IMG/VR virus record: IMGVR_UViG_3300050494_000042
From: a virus
Length of the DNA stretch: 29,676 nucleotides
Strand: one strand, 5' to 3'
Part shown: in pieces, positions 4,228 through 26,784 of the stretch
Numbering within the stretch: position 1 is the first letter of the stretch
How the letters are laid out: each line of letters starts with the position of its first letter
Made by a program: the position numbers and the translations under genes
The notes under the pieces: model-generated
Told to the model about the DNA's origin: nothing
The model's database searches: none
Seen by the model: only the letters and a program-made list of their open reading frames with translations

Positions 4228-4230
4228 AAA

Positions 4231-4301
4231 TTGCCTTTCAGGGAATTGTGTCCTATGGTTGGGTGTTCCGAGAATGACACCCAACACAAGGAAACACGAT
4301 G
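4231..4301 (+). promoter_or_regulatory. early promoter/leader cassette, copy 2 (exact 71-bp repeat)
   Basis: Base-for-base identical to 972-1042, up to and including the ATG. Confidence 0.85.
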
Positions 4302-8287: not shown

Positions 8288-8669
8288 GTCTCGTTACGCT
8301 CCCCTTTTGGTGTTAATTTGTGTGTCTTGTGGACCCCGTCCTGCTACCAACCTCAATCCCGCCCCGATTCACGACGTTGGATGGACTGTGCTAGTCAGAG
8401 ACCATCAAACGGCTCAATGGTACGTGGGACAGCGAGTTCGTATCCGGTTTGAGAAAAGCGAGTACCGAACCGTGAGTGGGGAAACTCACATCTGGATTGC
8501 GGACAAGGAAGTTCCCCCCACCATCATCTGTCGGGGGGAACTTCCCCCACCCTTCACCTCAATTACAATCACGGGTATCTGCAAGTCCGTAAATCGGGAT
8601 GGACGGTGGCGAAGTCCCCGGTGTGACTTCTGTGTGATCATCGAAGAATGCTCCGTCACGGTCCGTTAG
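8286..8669 (+). CDS. putative lipoprotein with an OB-fold-like domain
   Basis: MSRYAPLLVLICVSC lipobox-like leader. YVGQRVRI…ITITGIC…IIEECSV resembles tRNA_anti-like OB lipoproteins. Confidence 0.6.
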   Translation: MSRYAPLLVLICVSCGPRPATNLNPAPIHDVGWTVLVRDHQTAQWYVGQRVRIRFEKSEYRTVSGETHIWIADKEVPPTIICRGELPPPFTSITITGICKSVNRDGRWRSPRCDFCVIIEECSVTVR

Positions 8670-9108
8670 CGGGATGTCGGAGTGCTCCCAGGACTTCCCT
8701 GCGGAACTTCTCATTTTCCGCAGACTGATGAACGCGGCTCTTTTCCCCCTCGGTGATGAAGGTAGCCAAAATTCGACTGACGTTTTCGTTGGCTTCCTTC
8801 CGTGCCCGGTCGTTCTCCATCGCACAGTGATTTCTTAGGAGTTCCGACTGAGCATTGGCTTCTCGCATCCGACCGGCTTCCGCGTCCTGACGCTCTCTGC
8901 GTTCTGCGGCACGTTCTTCTTTCTCACTCCAAATCTGGAATCCGAACGCCGTGATAATTGCAAACAGAACCATTATCAGCCCCACATGGACGATTTGTTG
9001 GGGCGTCATCCCCCCAACTTTGGTAACAGCCGCAGCCCCTGCATCGACTAGCTGGGCATGAATCGCTGTTCGGGGTTGTTCAGGGGCTGGTGTCGGAGAA
9101 TCGGACAT
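8656..9108 (-). CDS. single-TM coiled-coil protein (lysis-associated candidate)
   Basis: TM segment IVHVGLIMVLFAIITAFGFQIW followed by a charged helical region. Confidence 0.75.
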   Translation of the reverse strand: MSDSPTPAPEQPRTAIHAQLVDAGAAAVTKVGGMTPQQIVHVGLIMVLFAIITAFGFQIWSEKEERAAERRERQDAEAGRMREANAQSELLRNHCAMENDRARKEANENVSRILATFITEGEKSRVHQSAENEKFRREVLGALRHPANGP

Positions 9109-11052: not shown

Positions 11053-11105
11053 ACAGTTTATCAGGCATTTCTGATACAATCCACATCCTGCCGACAGAAT
11101 CGAAT

Positions 11106-11134
11106 TTGCCTTCCAGGAAATCGTGTGCTAGGGT
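11106..11134 (+). promoter_or_regulatory. third, diverged member of the TTGCCT promoter family
   Basis: TTGCCT-TCCAGGAAATCGTGTGC-TAGGGT versus TTGCCT-TTCAGGGAATTGTGTCC-TATGGT. Confidence 0.75.
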
Positions 11135-11182
11135 TCTTTCGTTGAAGACACCCCGAACCCAACCCCACAAATCGAGAATAAT

Positions 11183-11885: not shown

Positions 11886-11944
11886 TCCGCTGCAGTGGAT
11901 TGGTAACTGCAAATACGACCACGCCAGTACAAAGGAACTCGCTC

Positions 11945-12624: not shown

Positions 12625-13308
12625 TTGTCAAGGATTCACTGCGTATTGATCTGCTTCAACAATCCGGAGCAGACTCTGACCCGATGGCAACGGGACGTCT
12701 TTCCCGGAGTCGAGTACACGAAGCAGGAACACTGCCTGACGGTGATTGACAATTCCGCCAAGCGATCCGAGATGCTGGCGGAAGGATTCGGCGAGAATTA
12801 CTTGTGGCAGGGGGGAAATAATCTACAATATGGCCCCTCCATCAACCTCGCCGTTCCTCGATTACCCTCCGACTACATCCTTTATGCCTGTACGAAACAC
12901 GGCAAGATGTTCGATCCGTCCTGGGTGTCTGATCTGCTCCATCCGTTCCAAGATGACGAGATGGTTGGCCAATCGGGGTTCTTGATGGGTTCCAACTCCC
13001 CAGAAGGTGTTGCCCACGCCATGAACTGCCCGTGGGTCAGGGAGCGGTTCCGATTCACCGATGAATCTGGAAACGGCTACGTCCCACAGCACATTCAGGG
13101 TGGGGTGTTCATGGGACGAACCCAGGCCATGCTGGAGAATCCCTACCATCCAGACATTGCACATTTGTACACGGATCATTATATCACCTGGGCGTTAATG
13201 AAAGACGGATGGAAGTGCGTGAATGTCCCCACCATCTGTTCCGTGTGGCGGTCCACCATTCAGAACCCCAATGGCATGAAATTCGTGCATTCTGACAACT
13301 TTACGTGA
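12625..13308 (+). CDS. GT-A/GT2-like glycosyltransferase (divergent)
   Basis: VLICFN, VIDNS, NLQYGPSINLA, SDYILY, WVSDL, HIQGGVFM, YTD…L..DGW. Confidence 0.75.
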   Translation: MSRIHCVLICFNNPEQTLTRWQRDVFPGVEYTKQEHCLTVIDNSAKRSEMLAEGFGENYLWQGGNNLQYGPSINLAVPRLPSDYILYACTKHGKMFDPSWVSDLLHPFQDDEMVGQSGFLMGSNSPEGVAHAMNCPWVRERFRFTDESGNGYVPQHIQGGVFMGRTQAMLENPYHPDIAHLYTDHYITWALMKDGWKCVNVPTICSVWRSTIQNPNGMKFVHSDNFT

Positions 13309-13317
13309 GAATCGTCA

Positions 13318-13830
13318 ATGCCATTGCTCTACGCCAATTTAAAGACTTTCGGAGTTCTTCCTGACGGGGAACCGGTGCCTGGATACGTCGATTCCCCCAC
13401 CAAAACGTATTCCATAAGCTCTGATGCTTTCCTTGTTGGAGAGCAGTGGCGTAACACTGAAGAAGAGAAGGATTCCATCTTATCCGGGGCATACGCCGAC
13501 GCTCTGCGGGAATGTGAAGTAGACTGTGACGTGTACCGGGCAGTGATTGAGTTCCTGATGCTCTGCTTTCGAGGTGGTCACCGAGACGGACAGTACAGAG
13601 ATATCGTTGGCTACCTCTTCGACTGTGACAGGAAGAATGTCCTGAAGGAGTTCCCGAAAGCATTCGTTGTCCAGGACGTTCGCAGACGACGAACACACTA
13701 CCGAATCGCGTCCGGCGTCTTCGATAACAGAGGCAGGAAGTTCCTTTGCAACTGGTGTCTGTCCGAAAAGAGAGCCTGGGCCGCAGCCGTGTCCTCCATC
13801 GCAAATCGCAAATGGGATCGATCAGCGTGA
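13318..13830 (+). CDS. hypothetical protein
   Basis: 170 aa, GTGA-coupled to the next gene. Confidence 0.65.
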   Translation: MPLLYANLKTFGVLPDGEPVPGYVDSPTKTYSISSDAFLVGEQWRNTEEEKDSILSGAYADALRECEVDCDVYRAVIEFLMLCFRGGHRDGQYRDIVGYLFDCDRKNVLKEFPKAFVVQDVRRRRTHYRIASGVFDNRGRKFLCNWCLSEKRAWAAAVSSIANRKWDRSA

Positions 13831-14225
13831 CTACTGAAGACGACTTCCAGAAGATGCTTGATCTTCACCCGGAGGACTGGCAGACACGACTGATCTTCGC
13901 CGACTGGTTGGAAGAAAGGAACAATCCACTCGCAATCGGGTATCGCATTCTCGGGTTGCATCGAATTGTTCCTTACAGAAGCTCAGCAACGGCAAGTTGG
14001 GTGTACTGCATCTGGGGCGGAAACTTCGTTGGGAGTCTTTGGGAAAAGCATCTACTCCCAGAACCGATTGATTACGAGATGATGTGTGACGCTGGCGGTG
14101 GCGAAGGACACGGATTCTCAGATTTATCAAGACGGGCACTTGAAGACCGTGCTGCCAGAGCCATTGCCGCATTGCCACCAGAACGAAAAGCCGAACTCCT
14201 TCAACAGGAATTATCACAAGCATGA
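13827..14225 (+). CDS. TIGR02996-domain protein, paralog 1
   Basis: TEDDFQKMLDLHPEDWQTRLIFADWLEERNNP.A. Confidence 0.85.
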   Translation: MTTEDDFQKMLDLHPEDWQTRLIFADWLEERNNPLAIGYRILGLHRIVPYRSSATASWVYCIWGGNFVGSLWEKHLLPEPIDYEMMCDAGGGEGHGFSDLSRRALEDRAARAIAALPPERKAELLQQELSQA

Positions 14226-14980
14226 AACCTCTCGCCGTGTTCACTATTTCTCGAAATGAAAAGTTTTTTCTACCGAGATGGCTTTCGTATTACAGCTACC
14301 TGAAAGCCGACCTATTCGTCCTCGATCACGAATCGGCTGACGGAAGTACGACGGGGATCAAGGCGAAGGTGGTCCCCGTCCACCGCGAGCACACCGACGA
14401 CGTCGGATGGATGCTTCGTACCGTCACGGAGTTCCAGCATGGACTCCTCAGTCACTACCACCGCGTTCTGTTCGCAGAAGTAGACGAGATTCTGTGTCCT
14501 GACCCACAGTCGTATCCGTCTACGAAATACAGTCCCCTTCAGTGCTATCTGGACTGTAATCAGCAATCGACCCTGACAGCCACGGGATACGACGTCTGTA
14601 ATTGTCCGGGGGATGTCCCGTTCGACCCCCGACGTCCGTTGCTATTCCAGCGGAAATGGAAACGCAACGGCCGCTACGACAAGACGCTCATCTCCACAAA
14701 GCCCCTGGAATGGGAAGTGGGCTTTCATCGGCTGAAGGGAGTACGGGAAGGAACCGACGAACACAATCCCGATCCGAACTTACTCCTGATTCATCTGCAC
14801 TACATGGACCGGGAAATCGCCTGGTCCCGGTTGGTCAGTCGAATGACGGGAAAGACACCGGCTCCTGGTGATTGGGGTGCTCAAAACAAACACGTCGAAA
14901 AGGAACCATTCGACCGTGATTTTGATGCTATGGTTGAGGGTGCTGTCGAAGTTCCTGACCGATGGAAGAGGATGCTGTGA
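14222..14980 (+). CDS. glycosyltransferase family 2 (Glyco_tranf_2_4-like)
   Basis: RNEKFFLPRWLSYY, VLDHESADGST, FAEVDEIL, W..GFH, LLLIHLHY.D. Confidence 0.88.
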   Translation: MKPLAVFTISRNEKFFLPRWLSYYSYLKADLFVLDHESADGSTTGIKAKVVPVHREHTDDVGWMLRTVTEFQHGLLSHYHRVLFAEVDEILCPDPQSYPSTKYSPLQCYLDCNQQSTLTATGYDVCNCPGDVPFDPRRPLLFQRKWKRNGRYDKTLISTKPLEWEVGFHRLKGVREGTDEHNPDPNLLLIHLHYMDREIAWSRLVSRMTGKTPAPGDWGAQNKHVEKEPFDRDFDAMVEGAVEVPDRWKRML

Positions 14981-15411
14981 CCACTGAGAAAGACTTCGAG
15001 AAGATGCTCGATGCGTGCCCAACTGACTGGGACACCCGAAAGATCTTTGCCGACTGGCTTCAAGATCGCGACGATCCGCGTGCGGAAGGAATTCGGGCGT
15101 TGGCTTTCTATCAAGAATTCCCCGCACTGGATGAAGCCACGTGGTTTAATAGAGACCAATACACTTCAAGCTACAAATTGCCGAGTGGACGTAAACACCA
15201 CGAAGGATTTCTTCCGAAGGACTGGTTCGATCTGATTGAAGGATATGACAGTCGAGACAGGGAATGGTGGAAGGATTTTTCACCAAAACACAAATCTGGA
15301 CGGTCCTCCAGAGCTAGAGCAGAAGACGCGGCGGCATTGGCATTCGCGAAACTTCCTGAAGAACGACGGCAGGAGTTACTTCAGCCTGTCCAGCAGGAGC
15401 AGACAGCATGA
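14977..15411 (+). CDS. TIGR02996-domain protein, paralog 2
   Basis: TEKDFEKMLDACPTDWDTRKIFADWLQDRDDPRAEGIR. Confidence 0.85.
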   Translation: MTTEKDFEKMLDACPTDWDTRKIFADWLQDRDDPRAEGIRALAFYQEFPALDEATWFNRDQYTSSYKLPSGRKHHEGFLPKDWFDLIEGYDSRDREWWKDFSPKHKSGRSSRARAEDAAALAFAKLPEERRQELLQPVQQEQTA

Positions 15412-15830
15412 CTAGCGAAGAGGACTTCTGGAGGCAAATTGACCAGAACCCAAAAGATTGGATGACTCGTTTGGTGTTCGCCGATTGGTTGTCCGACCAT
15501 GACGATCCGCGTGCGGAAGGAATGCGTGCTCTTGGTGTCCTCCGAACAGGAGTTCATTTTGCTTCTGGAGATCGAGTGTGGGCAATATTCTCCACGGAAT
15601 GGACACTGAAAGGACACTCAGACCCCAGTTGCGGTGTGCCAAAAGACTGGATCAAAGCAGTTCGTAGAACAGAGTTCGTCCATACGTGGGATAATTTTGG
15701 TTGTGTGTTCACAGTCGAAAGAAACGTGAGTAGGGTATCTGATCTTCTGAACGCACTGGCATGGGCTTTCTTTAATCTCCTCCCTGAACGCAAGCTCGAA
15801 CTTCTCCAACCGAAAGAACAACTCGTATGA
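15408..15830 (+). CDS. TIGR02996-domain protein, paralog 3
   Basis: SEEDFWRQIDQNPKDWMTRLVFADWLSDHDDPRAEGMR. Confidence 0.85.
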   Translation: MTSEEDFWRQIDQNPKDWMTRLVFADWLSDHDDPRAEGMRALGVLRTGVHFASGDRVWAIFSTEWTLKGHSDPSCGVPKDWIKAVRRTEFVHTWDNFGCVFTVERNVSRVSDLLNALAWAFFNLLPERKLELLQPKEQLV

Positions 15831-16441
15831 CCTGGGATGAACTCTTCCAAGCACCTGGACCTGACCGGCATTACGATGATCGGGTCTTGGGTCCGATTCA
15901 GAAGGCCGACGCTTGCCTGTTGGCCGCTGTGTGCAATTACATGCGTCCGGAAGCGGCTATCGAATACGGCTGTCTGGAAGGACACTCTGCGGCTGTGCTA
16001 GCTCGGTTCTGCAAGCGACTGTTCTGTGTCGAGATTGACCACGCTCGACAGGGACTGTGTCACGTGATCGACAAGAATCCCAATATCACCCACGTCCACG
16101 CCAGCATGACGGAGTGGGTGCCTCCGGAAGACGTGAAGGACATTGGTCTGGTGTACTTCGATGCCAGCCACAAATGCGAGGATTCTCTCGCGGCTTACGA
16201 CATTCTGGAATTCCGCCTGAGTCCCACGGCACTTCTGATTTGCCACGACACGGGCGACTGGTGCGATCCGTATCCCAACGAGGACTTCAAGAAGTTCACT
16301 GCACGGAAAGAAACCGTGGACGGGGAACGAGAATTCGTTCGGTGTCTGTTCCAACGAGGATGGCAGGCAATCGCGTTCGGATGTACGACGCAGTTCCGCC
16401 ACGGGTTGACGATTCTGCAACGCAGCACAGGATGGAAATAA
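15827..16441 (+). CDS. class I SAM-dependent methyltransferase (Methyltransf_24-like)
   Basis: IEYGCLEGHSA, CVEID, LVYFDASH, L…ALLICHD. Confidence 0.88.
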   Translation: MTWDELFQAPGPDRHYDDRVLGPIQKADACLLAAVCNYMRPEAAIEYGCLEGHSAAVLARFCKRLFCVEIDHARQGLCHVIDKNPNITHVHASMTEWVPPEDVKDIGLVYFDASHKCEDSLAAYDILEFRLSPTALLICHDTGDWCDPYPNEDFKKFTARKETVDGEREFVRCLFQRGWQAIAFGCTTQFRHGLTILQRSTGWK

Positions 16442-17640
16442 TGAAGCCGAAATTGGTATGCGTTACACCTACGATACGACCGGAACAAATGACCAAGTTC
16501 CGTGAGGCGTGGAATTACCTGTTTGACAAACACGAAGTTTCCTTGATCACGGTATGGGACGGGGAGCGTCCACGAGTCACTTACTCGCCAGGCTGCTCCA
16601 AAACCGAAATGGACATCACCCACACACCCTTGCTGGAGAAGGTGTGGACGGATCACCGGGATTTATTCGTTCGATTCAGTGATGCGTGCCGCAACCTCGG
16701 ATTCGTCGCTGCGGCTGCGATGGGGGCTGACTTCATCTTCACCGCCGATGACGACGTCGCTCCCGTTTCCTTCTGTGACTGTCCGTCCGGGTACTGGAAG
16801 GACAACTGGGACGACCCGATTAAAGCTCACCTGAATGCTCTCAACAAGAAAGTTTCAACGTCCTGGATGTCCACTGCCCACGACACGGAACTTCACTTGC
16901 GGGGGGAGCCGTATTCGACACGGGAAGAAAGTCCCGTGATGCTGTCCCACGGGGTTTGGGTGGGTGTGCCGGATTTCGACGGTGAGACACAGTTACGACT
17001 GGAGAATCAGACTCCAAGTTCGGAAACCAACTGGTTCAGTACGCAGACAGGTGTCCCCTACACTCTCCCCTACTACATCGGTCCGATTCCGAGAGGTGTT
17101 CTATCGGCCCTCTGTGGAATGAGTTTGATGGTGCGGAAAGAAGCTCTGCCGTACCTGTACTTCGCTCCGATGGGACCAGATTCTGGCGTCACGGACGGAT
17201 GCAGTACCTGCACTGGTCCCGGTCGAATACTGGACTCCGGTAATGAATGGAAGGGTCATCCCGATTGCAAGAGATGTCGTGGGACTGGAAGAATTTCCAT
17301 CCTCCATCGTTTCAGTGACATCTGGATGTCCGTCTTTCTGAAAAGAGAATTCGACAGCCGGGGATGGGCTGTGTTAACGGGGACATCGACCATCCTTCAC
17401 ACACGAGCTTCCGACGCCAAGAAAAACTTTGAACAGGAGAAGCTCGGAAGGGAGTGGAACGAACGAATCGCTTTGTGGAGCTTACTGAACGAACTACCCG
17501 AATACCCAAAAGGAACTGACATTTCCGAACAGGAGTGGAATTATTTCCGTTCCTACGCAGAGAAACGCCGAAAGTACGCAGAGTTGATTCAGTCAGTCCA
17601 GGGCCGCGAGAGCGGAGGAGGTGAAAACACTGCTCACTGA
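16441..17640 (+). CDS. reversibly glycosylated polypeptide / UDP-arabinopyranose mutase (GT75/RGP) family protein with a DnaJ-type Zn insert
   Basis: PTIR, ACRNLGF, IFTADDD, RGEPYS.RE, SHGVW..VPDFD…QL, IP.G…CGM, YF..MG, RFSDIW, TG…I.H.RASD…N..QE..G. True start is the ATG at 16441. Confidence 0.85.
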   Translation: MKPKLVCVTPTIRPEQMTKFREAWNYLFDKHEVSLITVWDGERPRVTYSPGCSKTEMDITHTPLLEKVWTDHRDLFVRFSDACRNLGFVAAAAMGADFIFTADDDVAPVSFCDCPSGYWKDNWDDPIKAHLNALNKKVSTSWMSTAHDTELHLRGEPYSTREESPVMLSHGVWVGVPDFDGETQLRLENQTPSSETNWFSTQTGVPYTLPYYIGPIPRGVLSALCGMSLMVRKEALPYLYFAPMGPDSGVTDGCSTCTGPGRILDSGNEWKGHPDCKRCRGTGRISILHRFSDIWMSVFLKREFDSRGWAVLTGTSTILHTRASDAKKNFEQEKLGREWNERIALWSLLNELPEYPKGTDISEQEWNYFRSYAEKRRKYAELIQSVQGRESGGGENTAH

Positions 17641-17846
17641 CAAATTGTCCGTAAGTCCTGTACAGGAAACGGGATAATACTCTTTGTTGCTGAAATCAGG
17701 ATCTCGCAGGACGTAAGTTATTACAAAATAAGGATTTAGATGCATTGTCAGCAGGAGGAGACAGACGTCAATCTTGGAAATAAGTACCCTCTCGCGGCAA
17801 CAGCTTGATTTGCTTTTCGGGCAAGAGGATGCTACTCTCCCAAGTG
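17641..17846 (+). promoter_or_regulatory. CRISPR leader-like region with a sigma70 promoter
   Basis: Non-coding and AT-richer, with TAAGT motifs at 17652/17714/17781. TTGCTT(17810-15)-17 nt-TACTCT(17833-38) with a TGn extension puts +1 near the first repeat. Confidence 0.75.
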
Positions 17847-18009
17847 GTGACATACCGAGTGCAACCGGTTTGTAGTTGCAACGAAAACACGTCGATTTTT
17901 ATTGACCAACAAGTTGATGGTGACATACCGAGTGCAACCGGTTTGTAGTTGCAACCGGAGGAACGGTAGGTGGAATGCGGGGTGACATGCCGAGTACAGC
18001 CAATGTGAA
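17847..18009 (+). CRISPR. orphan CRISPR mini-array (2 identical 36-nt repeats, 1 degenerate terminal repeat, 2 spacers)
   Basis: GTGACATACCGAGTGCAACCGGTTTGTAGTTGCAAC at 17847-17882 and 17920-17955. Spacers are 37 and 26 nt. The third copy at 17982 matches 21 of the first 28 nt. No cas gene in the window. Confidence 0.8.
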
Positions 18010-18014
18010 ACCAG

Positions 18015-18036
18015 TTGGAGAGTTGTAACTCTCCAA
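18015..18036. terminator. hairpin after the terminal repeat, at the convergent junction
   Basis: TTGGAGAGTT-GT-AACTCTCCAA, a perfect inverted repeat. Confidence 0.55.
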
Positions 18037-18041
18037 GTTGC

Positions 18042-18077
18042 CCGTCATTCCTAGTGCATTGGGTTTGTAAATGCAAC
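18042..18077 (+). repeat. diverged CRISPR repeat copy overlapping the 3' end of the glycosidase gene
   Basis: 26/36 identity to the array repeat, with a compensated stem TGCATT/AATGCA. Confidence 0.7.
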
Positions 18078-19265
18078 AACGGTACGTTGGGGAGTAAGTG
18101 CTCTTTCCAGATCCTCGTGACGGTATTTGTGGAACGTGATGTGTCGATCATGTGTTCCACTGGCCGTAATCCAGTCGTCACCAACTCGAACTGATGCACC
18201 TACGAATGTTACGGCTATGTACTGATTCGTGGGCTTGGTATCCAGGTCCGCGAACAGAACCGGACGAGGGATGATCCTTCGGAACGCAAAGGGGGGTTTG
18301 GCATCCAGGGTAACGAGTCCGGTCCGGTATCGACTGGGTGATCCGAAACGATCATGCATCCACACCCACAACTCATCACCCACCCGAACCGGAGGTGCCC
18401 CACCCCTCGGTTCCCCCCCTTCCCACGGAATGCCAGGAGCCTCAGAAACCCACTCCGCTCGTTCACCATTCAATTTTGCCACCTTTAGTGGGGATAAACT
18501 GTAGATGGCGTATAAATCCCCACCTGGACGATCCTGGTGCAGAAGATGGTTCTTCTGCCACCTGTTTGAGGGTACTCCTGGCCAATCTGGAGCGAATATC
18601 TGTTCTGTGTCGTAATTCTGCCCCAATCGAGCGTACAGTTGATGCGTCTGGGTGACTTTTCGGTTCCTTCCCACCACCCCAATGAACGAGACGTGCAGTT
18701 TGTCCTTGAAGACGAATAGACGTGGGTCTTCGCGGCCCCAATTCGCCCGTTTGTGGGACAGTTCGAGTTTCTTCGGCTGGCTGACAGGATCGAATCGCTT
18801 GTTGAGTTCACAGATCCAGATGTTCGACCCGGCCCATCCATCCCGCCACGCGAAGGCGTAACCGTCCTTCCATTCCGTCATTCCGGGGTTGAACCGATAC
18901 CCTGCGAGTTGAGGAAAGAAGTTGGTGTGATTCCATTCCTTGAGGACAGTGGACGGAACGGCTGGTTGAAGGATGGCAGGACGAATCTGGGGTTTGGGCT
19001 TGCGGTCGGGACATGAAACGCAACAAGAAACCCCTTCGATCTTCTTGCTGATGGTGCAGGTTCCGTGCTTGGGAACAGCACAACTGAAGACTTTGAGTTG
19101 AACCATCCCGGAGCAGGAAGGGCACTGTTTCGTTTCCCCTGTCTCCTTACCGCGATGAAGACAGAACGTCGGGTCGACCTTCTTGGGAGTGGCAGGAGGC
19201 TTAATGCCACGTTCCGCTTCTTTTCGTTTCAAGTAGACAGCTTCGAGTTCCTTTTTGCTGGGCAA
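18051..19265 (-). CDS. Cys-rich N-terminal domain plus five-bladed beta-propeller glycosidase/phosphorylase (GH130/DUF377-like)
   Basis: FNPG, GREDPRLF, WQKN, RGGAPP, YRTG, VTFVG, SG..D motifs. Confidence 0.75.
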   Translation of the reverse strand: MPSKKELEAVYLKRKEAERGIKPPATPKKVDPTFCLHRGKETGETKQCPSCSGMVQLKVFSCAVPKHGTCTISKKIEGVSCCVSCPDRKPKPQIRPAILQPAVPSTVLKEWNHTNFFPQLAGYRFNPGMTEWKDGYAFAWRDGWAGSNIWICELNKRFDPVSQPKKLELSHKRANWGREDPRLFVFKDKLHVSFIGVVGRNRKVTQTHQLYARLGQNYDTEQIFAPDWPGVPSNRWQKNHLLHQDRPGGDLYAIYSLSPLKVAKLNGERAEWVSEAPGIPWEGGEPRGGAPPVRVGDELWVWMHDRFGSPSRYRTGLVTLDAKPPFAFRRIIPRPVLFADLDTKPTNQYIAVTFVGASVRVGDDWITASGTHDRHITFHKYRHEDLERALTPQRTVVAFTNPMH

Positions 19266-19300: not shown

Positions 19301-19329
19301 ACGGAAAGGAGCAATTTCCTGAAAGGCAA
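19301..19329 (-). promoter_or_regulatory. fourth copy of the TTGCCTTTCAGG.AATTG motif, with a poor -10
   Basis: The - strand reads TTGCCTTTCAGGAAATTG (17/18 to the early cassette), upstream of the glycosidase gene. Confidence 0.5.
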
Positions 19330-19426
19330 TCCCCTCTCCGTCCTGGAGTATTTTAGGGGGGTATGGTTGTACTGAGAAGATGCATCGCATTTCGCGGTGT
19401 CGAACTCGAAACTTGGGAGTGGAATT

Positions 19427-26748: not shown

Positions 26749-26784
26749 GTTGCAACTATTAACCCGTTGCACTGGGATGTTCTT
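26749..26784 (-). repeat. solitary CRISPR repeat unit in the structural operon
   Basis: The - strand reads AAGAACATCCCAGTGCAACGGGTTAATAGTTGCAAC, matching 22 of the last 25 nt of the array repeat. It is intergenic and sense to the late operon. Confidence 0.8.

Follow-up and report, generated by a model that had tools for sequence, protein, structure and literature searches.

The short array at 17847-18019 of the window (the whole 29,676-nt stretch of phage DNA analysed here, from IMG/VR record IMGVR_UViG_3300050494_000042) is very probably a satellite, or second, CRISPR array of a Cas12m, predicted to be nuclease-dead, that the phage itself encodes. A first-pass annotation had described it as a cas-less mini-array supplying guides to a Cas12m-like protein of the host or one encoded at a distance by the phage. 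'Cas-less' holds for the neighbourhood only, as ENA contig ERZ27257633 k141_2715945 (103,868 nt) carries the window's genes and cas12m together, with the mini-array near coordinate 11,800 and cas12m at 80,816-82,720, about 69 kb apart. The alternative of a distant phage-encoded effector thus stands, and the headline version with a host effector does not. The contig is 100% identical to the phage genome record that includes the window (G000; 65,313 nt, 79% complete) in two stretches, one of 15,379 nt that takes in the mini-array and one of 1,412 nt at the opposite end. That record yields no effector by the Pfam TNB domain, by protein search or by family HMM, its one TNB match being weak (E 5e-4) and in a 95-aa frame. 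This blank is misleading because cas12m lies beyond the contig end. We also rejected an orphan array in a phage that has lost cas12m, since the gene is on the same contig.

The effector (P0013, 634 aa) is a Cas12m that matches PDB 23vw at E 1e-43. Alanines A357 and A527 replace the RuvC-I aspartate and the RuvC-II glutamate of 23vw, with D609 retained, and on these residues the protein is predicted to be RuvC-dead and non-cutting; alanine is present at the RuvC-I position in 22 of 22 close family members aligned. P0013 is the sole member of its family in 100.6 kb of joined sequence, outside which lie 3.2 kb at the contig end. No cas1 was found in the G000 record by family search or among the precomputed Pfam labels seen for the remainder, again with the last 3.2 kb outside. 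Three IMG/VR fragments related by a structural protein, two of them incomplete, contain no Cas12m match.

The array itself has identical direct repeats and unique spacers, as expected of a CRISPR array. Repeat 1 (17847-17882, + strand) and repeat 2 (17920-17955, +) have the same 36-nt sequence, a Cas12m-type pseudoknot handle, and are followed by spacer 1 (17883-17919, +; 37 nt, leader-proximal) and spacer 2 (17956-17981, +; 26 nt), respectively. A decayed third repeat (17982-18019, +) keeps the 5′ half, matching repeats 1 and 2 at 17 of its first 20 nt, and has a broken 3′ stem. Alignment of the three thus bears out the two perfect copies and one decayed copy that were annotated originally, and the sequence of the mini-array is the same in independent ENA and JGI assemblies. 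In the repeat fold, CCG pairs with a CGG in the loop, forming a pseudoknot that counts 4 bp once the flanking A-T is included; between the 6-bp stem and the spacer there are 2 nt. A hairpin with a predicted energy of -13 kcal/mol and no U tract (18012-18040, no strand assigned) lies between the convergent transcripts of the array and of a GH130-like gene, for which it is a possible stop or stabiliser. A sequence scan around the mini-array found no anti-repeat beyond further handles of the same kind.

The pairing is supported by covariation, in agreement with the CCG-CGG pseudoknot and stem that had been proposed from the sequence. We aligned 11 repeats chosen by their position beside a Cas12m-like gene, and not by pairing, with the mini-array repeat, and in these 12 Cas12m-linked repeats all 108 of 108 cells pair and six of the nine pairs are changed on both sides. 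This covariation score is reached in 0 of 500 shuffles, a count that is not a p-value because the 12 sequences are related, and slid registers pair at only 22-46%. Minimum-energy folding is uninformative here, ViennaRNA giving no signal (z -0.46) with a program that cannot fold pseudoknots, and an Rfam search returned nothing.

Searches of IMG/VR with the exact repeat and a first degenerate pattern gave 0 matches; a later pattern scan identified a 14-repeat array behind a 638-aa gene, the product of which matches the solved Cas12m 23vw (E 3e-35). A metagenome scan returned only the contig L001. Cas12m relatives numbering 24 proteins at ≥39% identity (query included) were then recovered by protein search, and repeats of the same layout are present behind the gene in all seven of the further loci inspected, most of which have portal or shared phage genes. 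Near-identical repeats therefore flank Cas12m-like genes in eight phage loci, and the family profile matches PDB entries 23vw (1e-90), GoCas12m (8pm4; 4e-44) and MmCas12m2 (8hhl; 3e-43). Assignment of the repeat as type V-M (Cas12m)-like is borne out by these loci and by its layout, which is that of the MmCas12m2 scaffold (PMC10442227), so the V-M layout given in the annotation was correct. In the arrays of more distant viral Cas12m-like genes (L029-L037; 25-30% identity) the two-stem layout is retained with other stem sequences, L036 having a repeat that differs from the rest of this group. Directly upstream of cas12m in L001 there is a second, heterogeneous array of eight divergent but structure-preserving repeats (8443-8960), in addition to the regular array downstream.

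That the locus programmes or jams a host-encoded Cas12m, as a guide donor or an RNA anti-CRISPR, has precedent in the viral mini-arrays and solitary repeats that are established as exploiting host effectors (PMC11656645, PMC10651486). Here, however, the phage has an effector of its own, whose array includes an exact copy of this repeat, and portal or shared phage genes are present in most of the eight close-homolog loci. Moreover, the repeat search that had been suggested produced no host counterpart: GTDB genome contigs scanned with two repeat patterns contain no array with this repeat, only single chance matches lacking the pseudoknot, and a single-protein query of 401 sampled genomes of the Planctomycetota-level group found no close effector homolog. 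We regard a host-encoded partner as very unlikely. Planctomycetota were sampled as the likely host phylum, to which the TIGR02996 domains encoded by the phage appear to point, and the sequencing runs that hold this DNA are rhizosphere and soil metagenomes.

The connection to the phage's own system is also evident upstream of the repeats. The region at 17641-17846 (+) is a CRISPR leader with a promoter, homologous both to the one at the phage's main Cas12m array and to six further Cas12m leaders. It contains a leader motif with a CTCGCGG core (17788-17797, +) located 59 nt before repeat 1; in seven Cas12m loci the corresponding distance is 54-58 nt. Without gaps, the last 62 nt of the leader (using the sister-strain copy that lacks a 4-nt insertion) are identical to the main-array leader at 31 of 62 positions, which is reached in 0 of 2000 shuffles. 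Spacer 1 is not a copy of the leader (p=0.49), and this origin was rejected.

The promoter (TTGCTT-17-TACTCT with an extended -10; 17810-17838, +) is predicted to start transcription at about repeat 1. It had been described as a good sigma70 promoter, which is an overstatement because it matches the E. coli consensus at 6 of 12 positions and is not called by a promoter scan tool; what stands is a promoter of the phage's own class. This class, TTGCYT-N17-TANNNT, is present 8 times in 90.7 kb, where the null gives 0.57 on average (maximum 2) and other spacings give 0-2 copies; it also precedes cas12m and the main array. Leader motif and promoter occur together at two sites only in the 100.6 kb, the main array and the mini-array. 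Elsewhere in the window, repeated elements of 74 nt and shorter contain a TTGCCT-17-TANNNT promoter (969-1042, 4228-4301, 11102-11135 and 19312-19330 (-)), and two of the copies are 99% identical.

The two arrays have apparently exchanged sequence. The main array, located with cas12m 69 kb away, has seven repeats. Five of them (1-4 and 7) are of the main type, whereas repeat 6 has exactly the sequence of the mini-array repeat, and repeat 5 is a hybrid, main-type in its 5′ half and mini-type in its 3′ half, with one pseudoknot pair broken by the latter (L016 10323-10429). The simplest reading is that recombination moved the spacer between repeats 5 and 6 into the main array, presumably from the satellite array. 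A misassembled hybrid is unlikely because the two assemblies (JGI and ENA) concur across 11,692 nt and a Logan contig is concordant, joining a mini-array-type repeat to main spacer 6.

Two sister strains show that the spacers of the mini-array turn over. One (L045) is identical to this phage over ~270 nt up to the -10 box, after which it has two repeats and two different spacers. Its repeats differ from those of the mini-array at a single loop position, GGTTTGTA versus GGTTAGTA, and downstream there is a 123-aa gene followed by a terminal handle with further compensatory changes. The other, a contig from run X7 of another study, is without repeat 1 and spacer 1; its repeat 2 and spacer 2 are present with four changes, after which 489 other bases follow. 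These had been considered as six or seven more spacers, which we reject as they are mostly the 123-aa gene, a contig of the X7 length and layout that encodes this gene being taken as the same record. There are thus three spacer sets at one leader in three strains, and the repeats are identical within each strain. Spacer 2 is common to this phage and X7, and spacer 1 is absent from both sister strains; most simply, spacer 1 is a recent gain at the leader end, the alternative being its loss in X7.

In both sister strains the 123-aa gene lies directly behind the array on the same strand and is closed by a variant handle, and it is missing here between 17982 and 18033, the stretch that includes the decayed third repeat. 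In the gene product (L045 1498-1869 (-)) the N-terminus is charged and rich in proline, and Pfam gives a faint Ig-like match (E 0.03). The main rival account starts from this arrangement: promoter and repeats would mainly form the 5′ end of an mRNA for a 123-aa cargo gene. On this view Cas12m would bind or cleave that mRNA, and the spacers would have arisen incidentally, at a leader to which the adaptation machinery is drawn. The same-strand gene in both sister strains favours such an account, as do the failure to find a target for either spacer and the abundance of similar handles elsewhere in the genome, where there are ~30 repeat-like pseudoknots in 100.6 kb, many just before start codons and one in front of cas12m. 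The array outlives the loss of the cargo gene, however, and the leader motif is kept at the mini-array and main array only. Furthermore, spacers change from strain to strain but the repeats within a strain stay identical, which is how working arrays behave, and a unit of the mini-array repeat type has been taken into the main array. On these grounds we think it improbable that the locus is mainly an mRNA leader, and prefer a satellite array.

Eight of the ~30 pseudoknots are array repeats and ~20 are leader-less handles. In the G000 record a strict pairing scan finds four units against none in 20 shuffles, and a looser scan finds ten against a null mean of 1.1. One handle is located just beyond the mini-array (18042-18077, +), where both stems are kept by compensatory changes and the sequence overlaps the end of an opposite-strand gene; it is further compensated in a sister strain. 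A solitary handle resembling the main-array repeat occupies an intergenic position, with the next start codon 45 nt further on (26749-26784, -), and a weak one (11886-11913, +) follows immediately after a stop codon, with a profile score within the random maxima and its pairing intact. Other leader-less handles with compensatory changes are at G000:C1 coordinates 26710, 26163, 21906, 21432, 21371, 19318, 2264 and 2215 (all -), co-oriented with genes, several of them 14-45 nt before a start codon and some in close pairs. Solitary handles are also present in L018 (2723, 2994, 7946, 11293 and 16603) and L021 (3480, 1691, 1636 and 1054), with one directly before cas12m in each, and the stretches fetched of L015, L017, L019 and L020 contain no convincing examples.

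The placement of ~20 leader-less handles before phage genes suggests a further function of Cas12m on RNA, one that could be the main selective force. A more elaborate possibility is a two-tier system built on one presumably dead Cas12m, in which the leader arrays gain spacers through host enzymes, swap them by recombination and repress host chromosomal genes, while the ~20 handles let Cas12m bind or cut the phage's own mRNAs, so that guide supply and gene control compete. We hold this combined scheme to be rather doubtful.

The surroundings of the mini-array indicate something of its origin. A 399-aa RGP-family glycosyltransferase gene (16441-17640, +) lies upstream of the array, at the place of cas12m in the related phage L021, and a GH130-like gene downstream (18051-19265, -) has a homolog (42% identity) that also follows the cas12m array of L021. 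There, cas12m and an array of at least nine repeats are followed by homologs of three genes located downstream of the mini-array here (42%, 48% and 36% identity). The TIGR02996 genes found 2-4 kb upstream of the mini-array have homologs in L019, where they precede cas12m. On the strength of the L021 and L019 gene order, the mini-array site may be an older home of the whole cas12m locus, with the RGP glycosyltransferase now before the leader. The array sits within a glycan-modification cluster (window 12625-19265) of GT2-like, Methyltransf_24, RGP-family and GH130-like genes, interleaved with three TIGR02996 paralogs. Large phage proteins with extra enzyme-like Pfam matches are encoded in L016 (11384-14584 and 15978-17825) and L015 (8884-13506); they include a portal with an ATLF-type match and PI3/PI4-kinase-like and ADP-ribosyltransferase-like domains, and look like polyvalent head-associated proteins.

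An older home at this site would also fit a decaying relic, the remains of the ancestral locus after the loss or relocation of cas12m, now free of selection. To the gene order in L021 and L019 can be added the broken third repeat and the missing neighbouring gene. Nonetheless, the leader, the promoter and two perfect repeats are intact here, and ~270 nt of the leader region are unchanged in a strain that shares none of the spacers. A relic origin is in any case compatible with present use, and we consider disuse a quite remote prospect compared with a satellite array still in service.

No protospacer was found for the spacers of the mini-array, the sister strains or the main array in the databases searched, in which the relevant soil elements are poorly sampled. 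For the mini-array spacers, exact IMG/VR scans gave 0 protospacers, matches to GenBank phages and plasmids were at E 0.5 or worse, and in the 401 genomes with 3 mismatches allowed there were 0 and 1 matches, compared with 1 and 3 for reversed controls. The best matches to the phage's own genome (14-15 of 20) equal those of shuffled spacers, and none is PAM-flanked at cas12m. With no above-chance match in the cas12m promoter, a crRNA-like autoregulatory mini-array (CreR/crlRNA) was rejected as an identity for the locus. Because no target was found, no PAM could be inferred, and the silencing of host or competitor genes proposed at first stays a hypothesis. A leader-pattern search of host-class genomes gave 3 matches against 6 in the control, which is chance level, and none lies before an array.

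We propose that the locus works like a type V-M array, since it has those type V-M features that can be tested by sequence. Cas12m is known to process its own guides and to silence by binding DNA (PMC11013384, PMC10442227), and by analogy the promoter would start an RNA at repeat 1, and Cas12m would bind the pseudoknot and cut the precursor within the repeat without a tracrRNA. Some 17-20 nt of spacer would then be used to bind matching DNA beside a PAM, blocking transcription without cutting; at 37 and 26 nt, both spacers could form a 17-nt heteroduplex. New spacers would presumably be added at the leader by host Cas1-Cas2 acting in trans, since the searches of the phage gave no cas1, and recombination would carry units from one array to the other.

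Co-infecting phages or other mobile elements would be the likeliest targets. Competition with mobile elements is put forward as the most probable role on the precedent of viral mini-arrays, most of whose spacers are directed at related viruses (PMC11656645), and not on evidence from this locus; silencing of competitors is on the whole probable. The full account, of a live satellite array that feeds guides to the phage's own Cas12m so as to silence foreign DNA, is the explanation we favour with reasonable confidence. The shortness of spacer 2 and the broken repeat downstream of it count against a live array.

An array that appears cas-less in a window, or in a viral contig that is 79% complete, can thus belong to the phage's own effector, and counts of 'host-hijacking' mini-arrays made from fragments need care for this reason. 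The second leader, the turnover of spacers and the hybrid repeat together provide a testable case of how a presumably non-cutting phage Cas12m without adaptation genes keeps its guides current. The natural repeat variants with compensatory changes map the handle tolerance of this Cas12m clade, which is useful for compact DNA-binding tools.

Among known systems the closest are the type V-M Cas12m proteins (MmCas12m2, 8hhl/8hio, PMC10442227; GoCas12m, 8pm4, PMC11013384; and 23vw), which share with this phage a 36-nt repeat, a stem and pseudoknot ending 2 nt before the guide, a homologous effector of ~600 aa, an altered RuvC site and the lack of cas1 in the part examined. The phage system differs in belonging to a phage-borne clade with alanine at RuvC-I and, in P0013, at RuvC-II, in a loop that is one base longer than in the MmCas12m2 scaffold, and in having a main and a distant satellite array, two repeat variants and ~20 leader-less handles. 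V-M systems of phages or prophages have been described (PMC11656645; 10.64898/2026.09.14.751636). That of myxophage MV-1 (10.64898/2026.09.14.751636) likewise combines a phage Cas12m and an array with no adaptation genes, no tracrRNA and no protospacers found; MvCas12m, however, keeps D-E-D and has one adjacent array, and the account consulted mentions no satellite array or dispersed handles.

With viral mini-arrays (Faure 2019 and Medvedeva 2019, via PMC11656645; 10.1101/2023.03.03.530964) the locus has in common one or two spacers, its own promoter, no adjacent cas and a probable role in competition. Those arrays copy the host repeat and use the host effector, whereas here repeat and effector are the phage's and no targets are identified. 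The locus falls outside the cas-less, host-exploiting mini-arrays because their defining absence of an effector does not apply. Solitary repeat units, RNA anti-CRISPRs and crRNA-like regulators (PMC10651486; 10.1101/2023.03.03.530964) resemble the repeat copies that lie outside the main array and keep the effector-binding fold (18042, 26749 and others). The mini-array differs from solitary repeats and RNA anti-CRISPRs by its leader and changing spacers, and with a leader and strain-variable spacers we reject an RNA anti-CRISPR (Racr) identity for it.

Type IV-A systems silence without cutting. The type IV-A3 systems of plasmids (10.1101/2023.06.23.546257) are similar as mobile-element systems without an adaptation module of their own, and acquire spacers in trans; their effector is a class 1 multi-subunit complex, whereas for this phage acquisition in trans is only inferred. 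For Cas12m, neither a distant satellite array nor dispersed handles turned up in a limited literature search. The present analysis contributes the strain turnover of spacers, a hybrid repeat, a leader present in two copies and synteny with the cas12m loci of L021 and L019.
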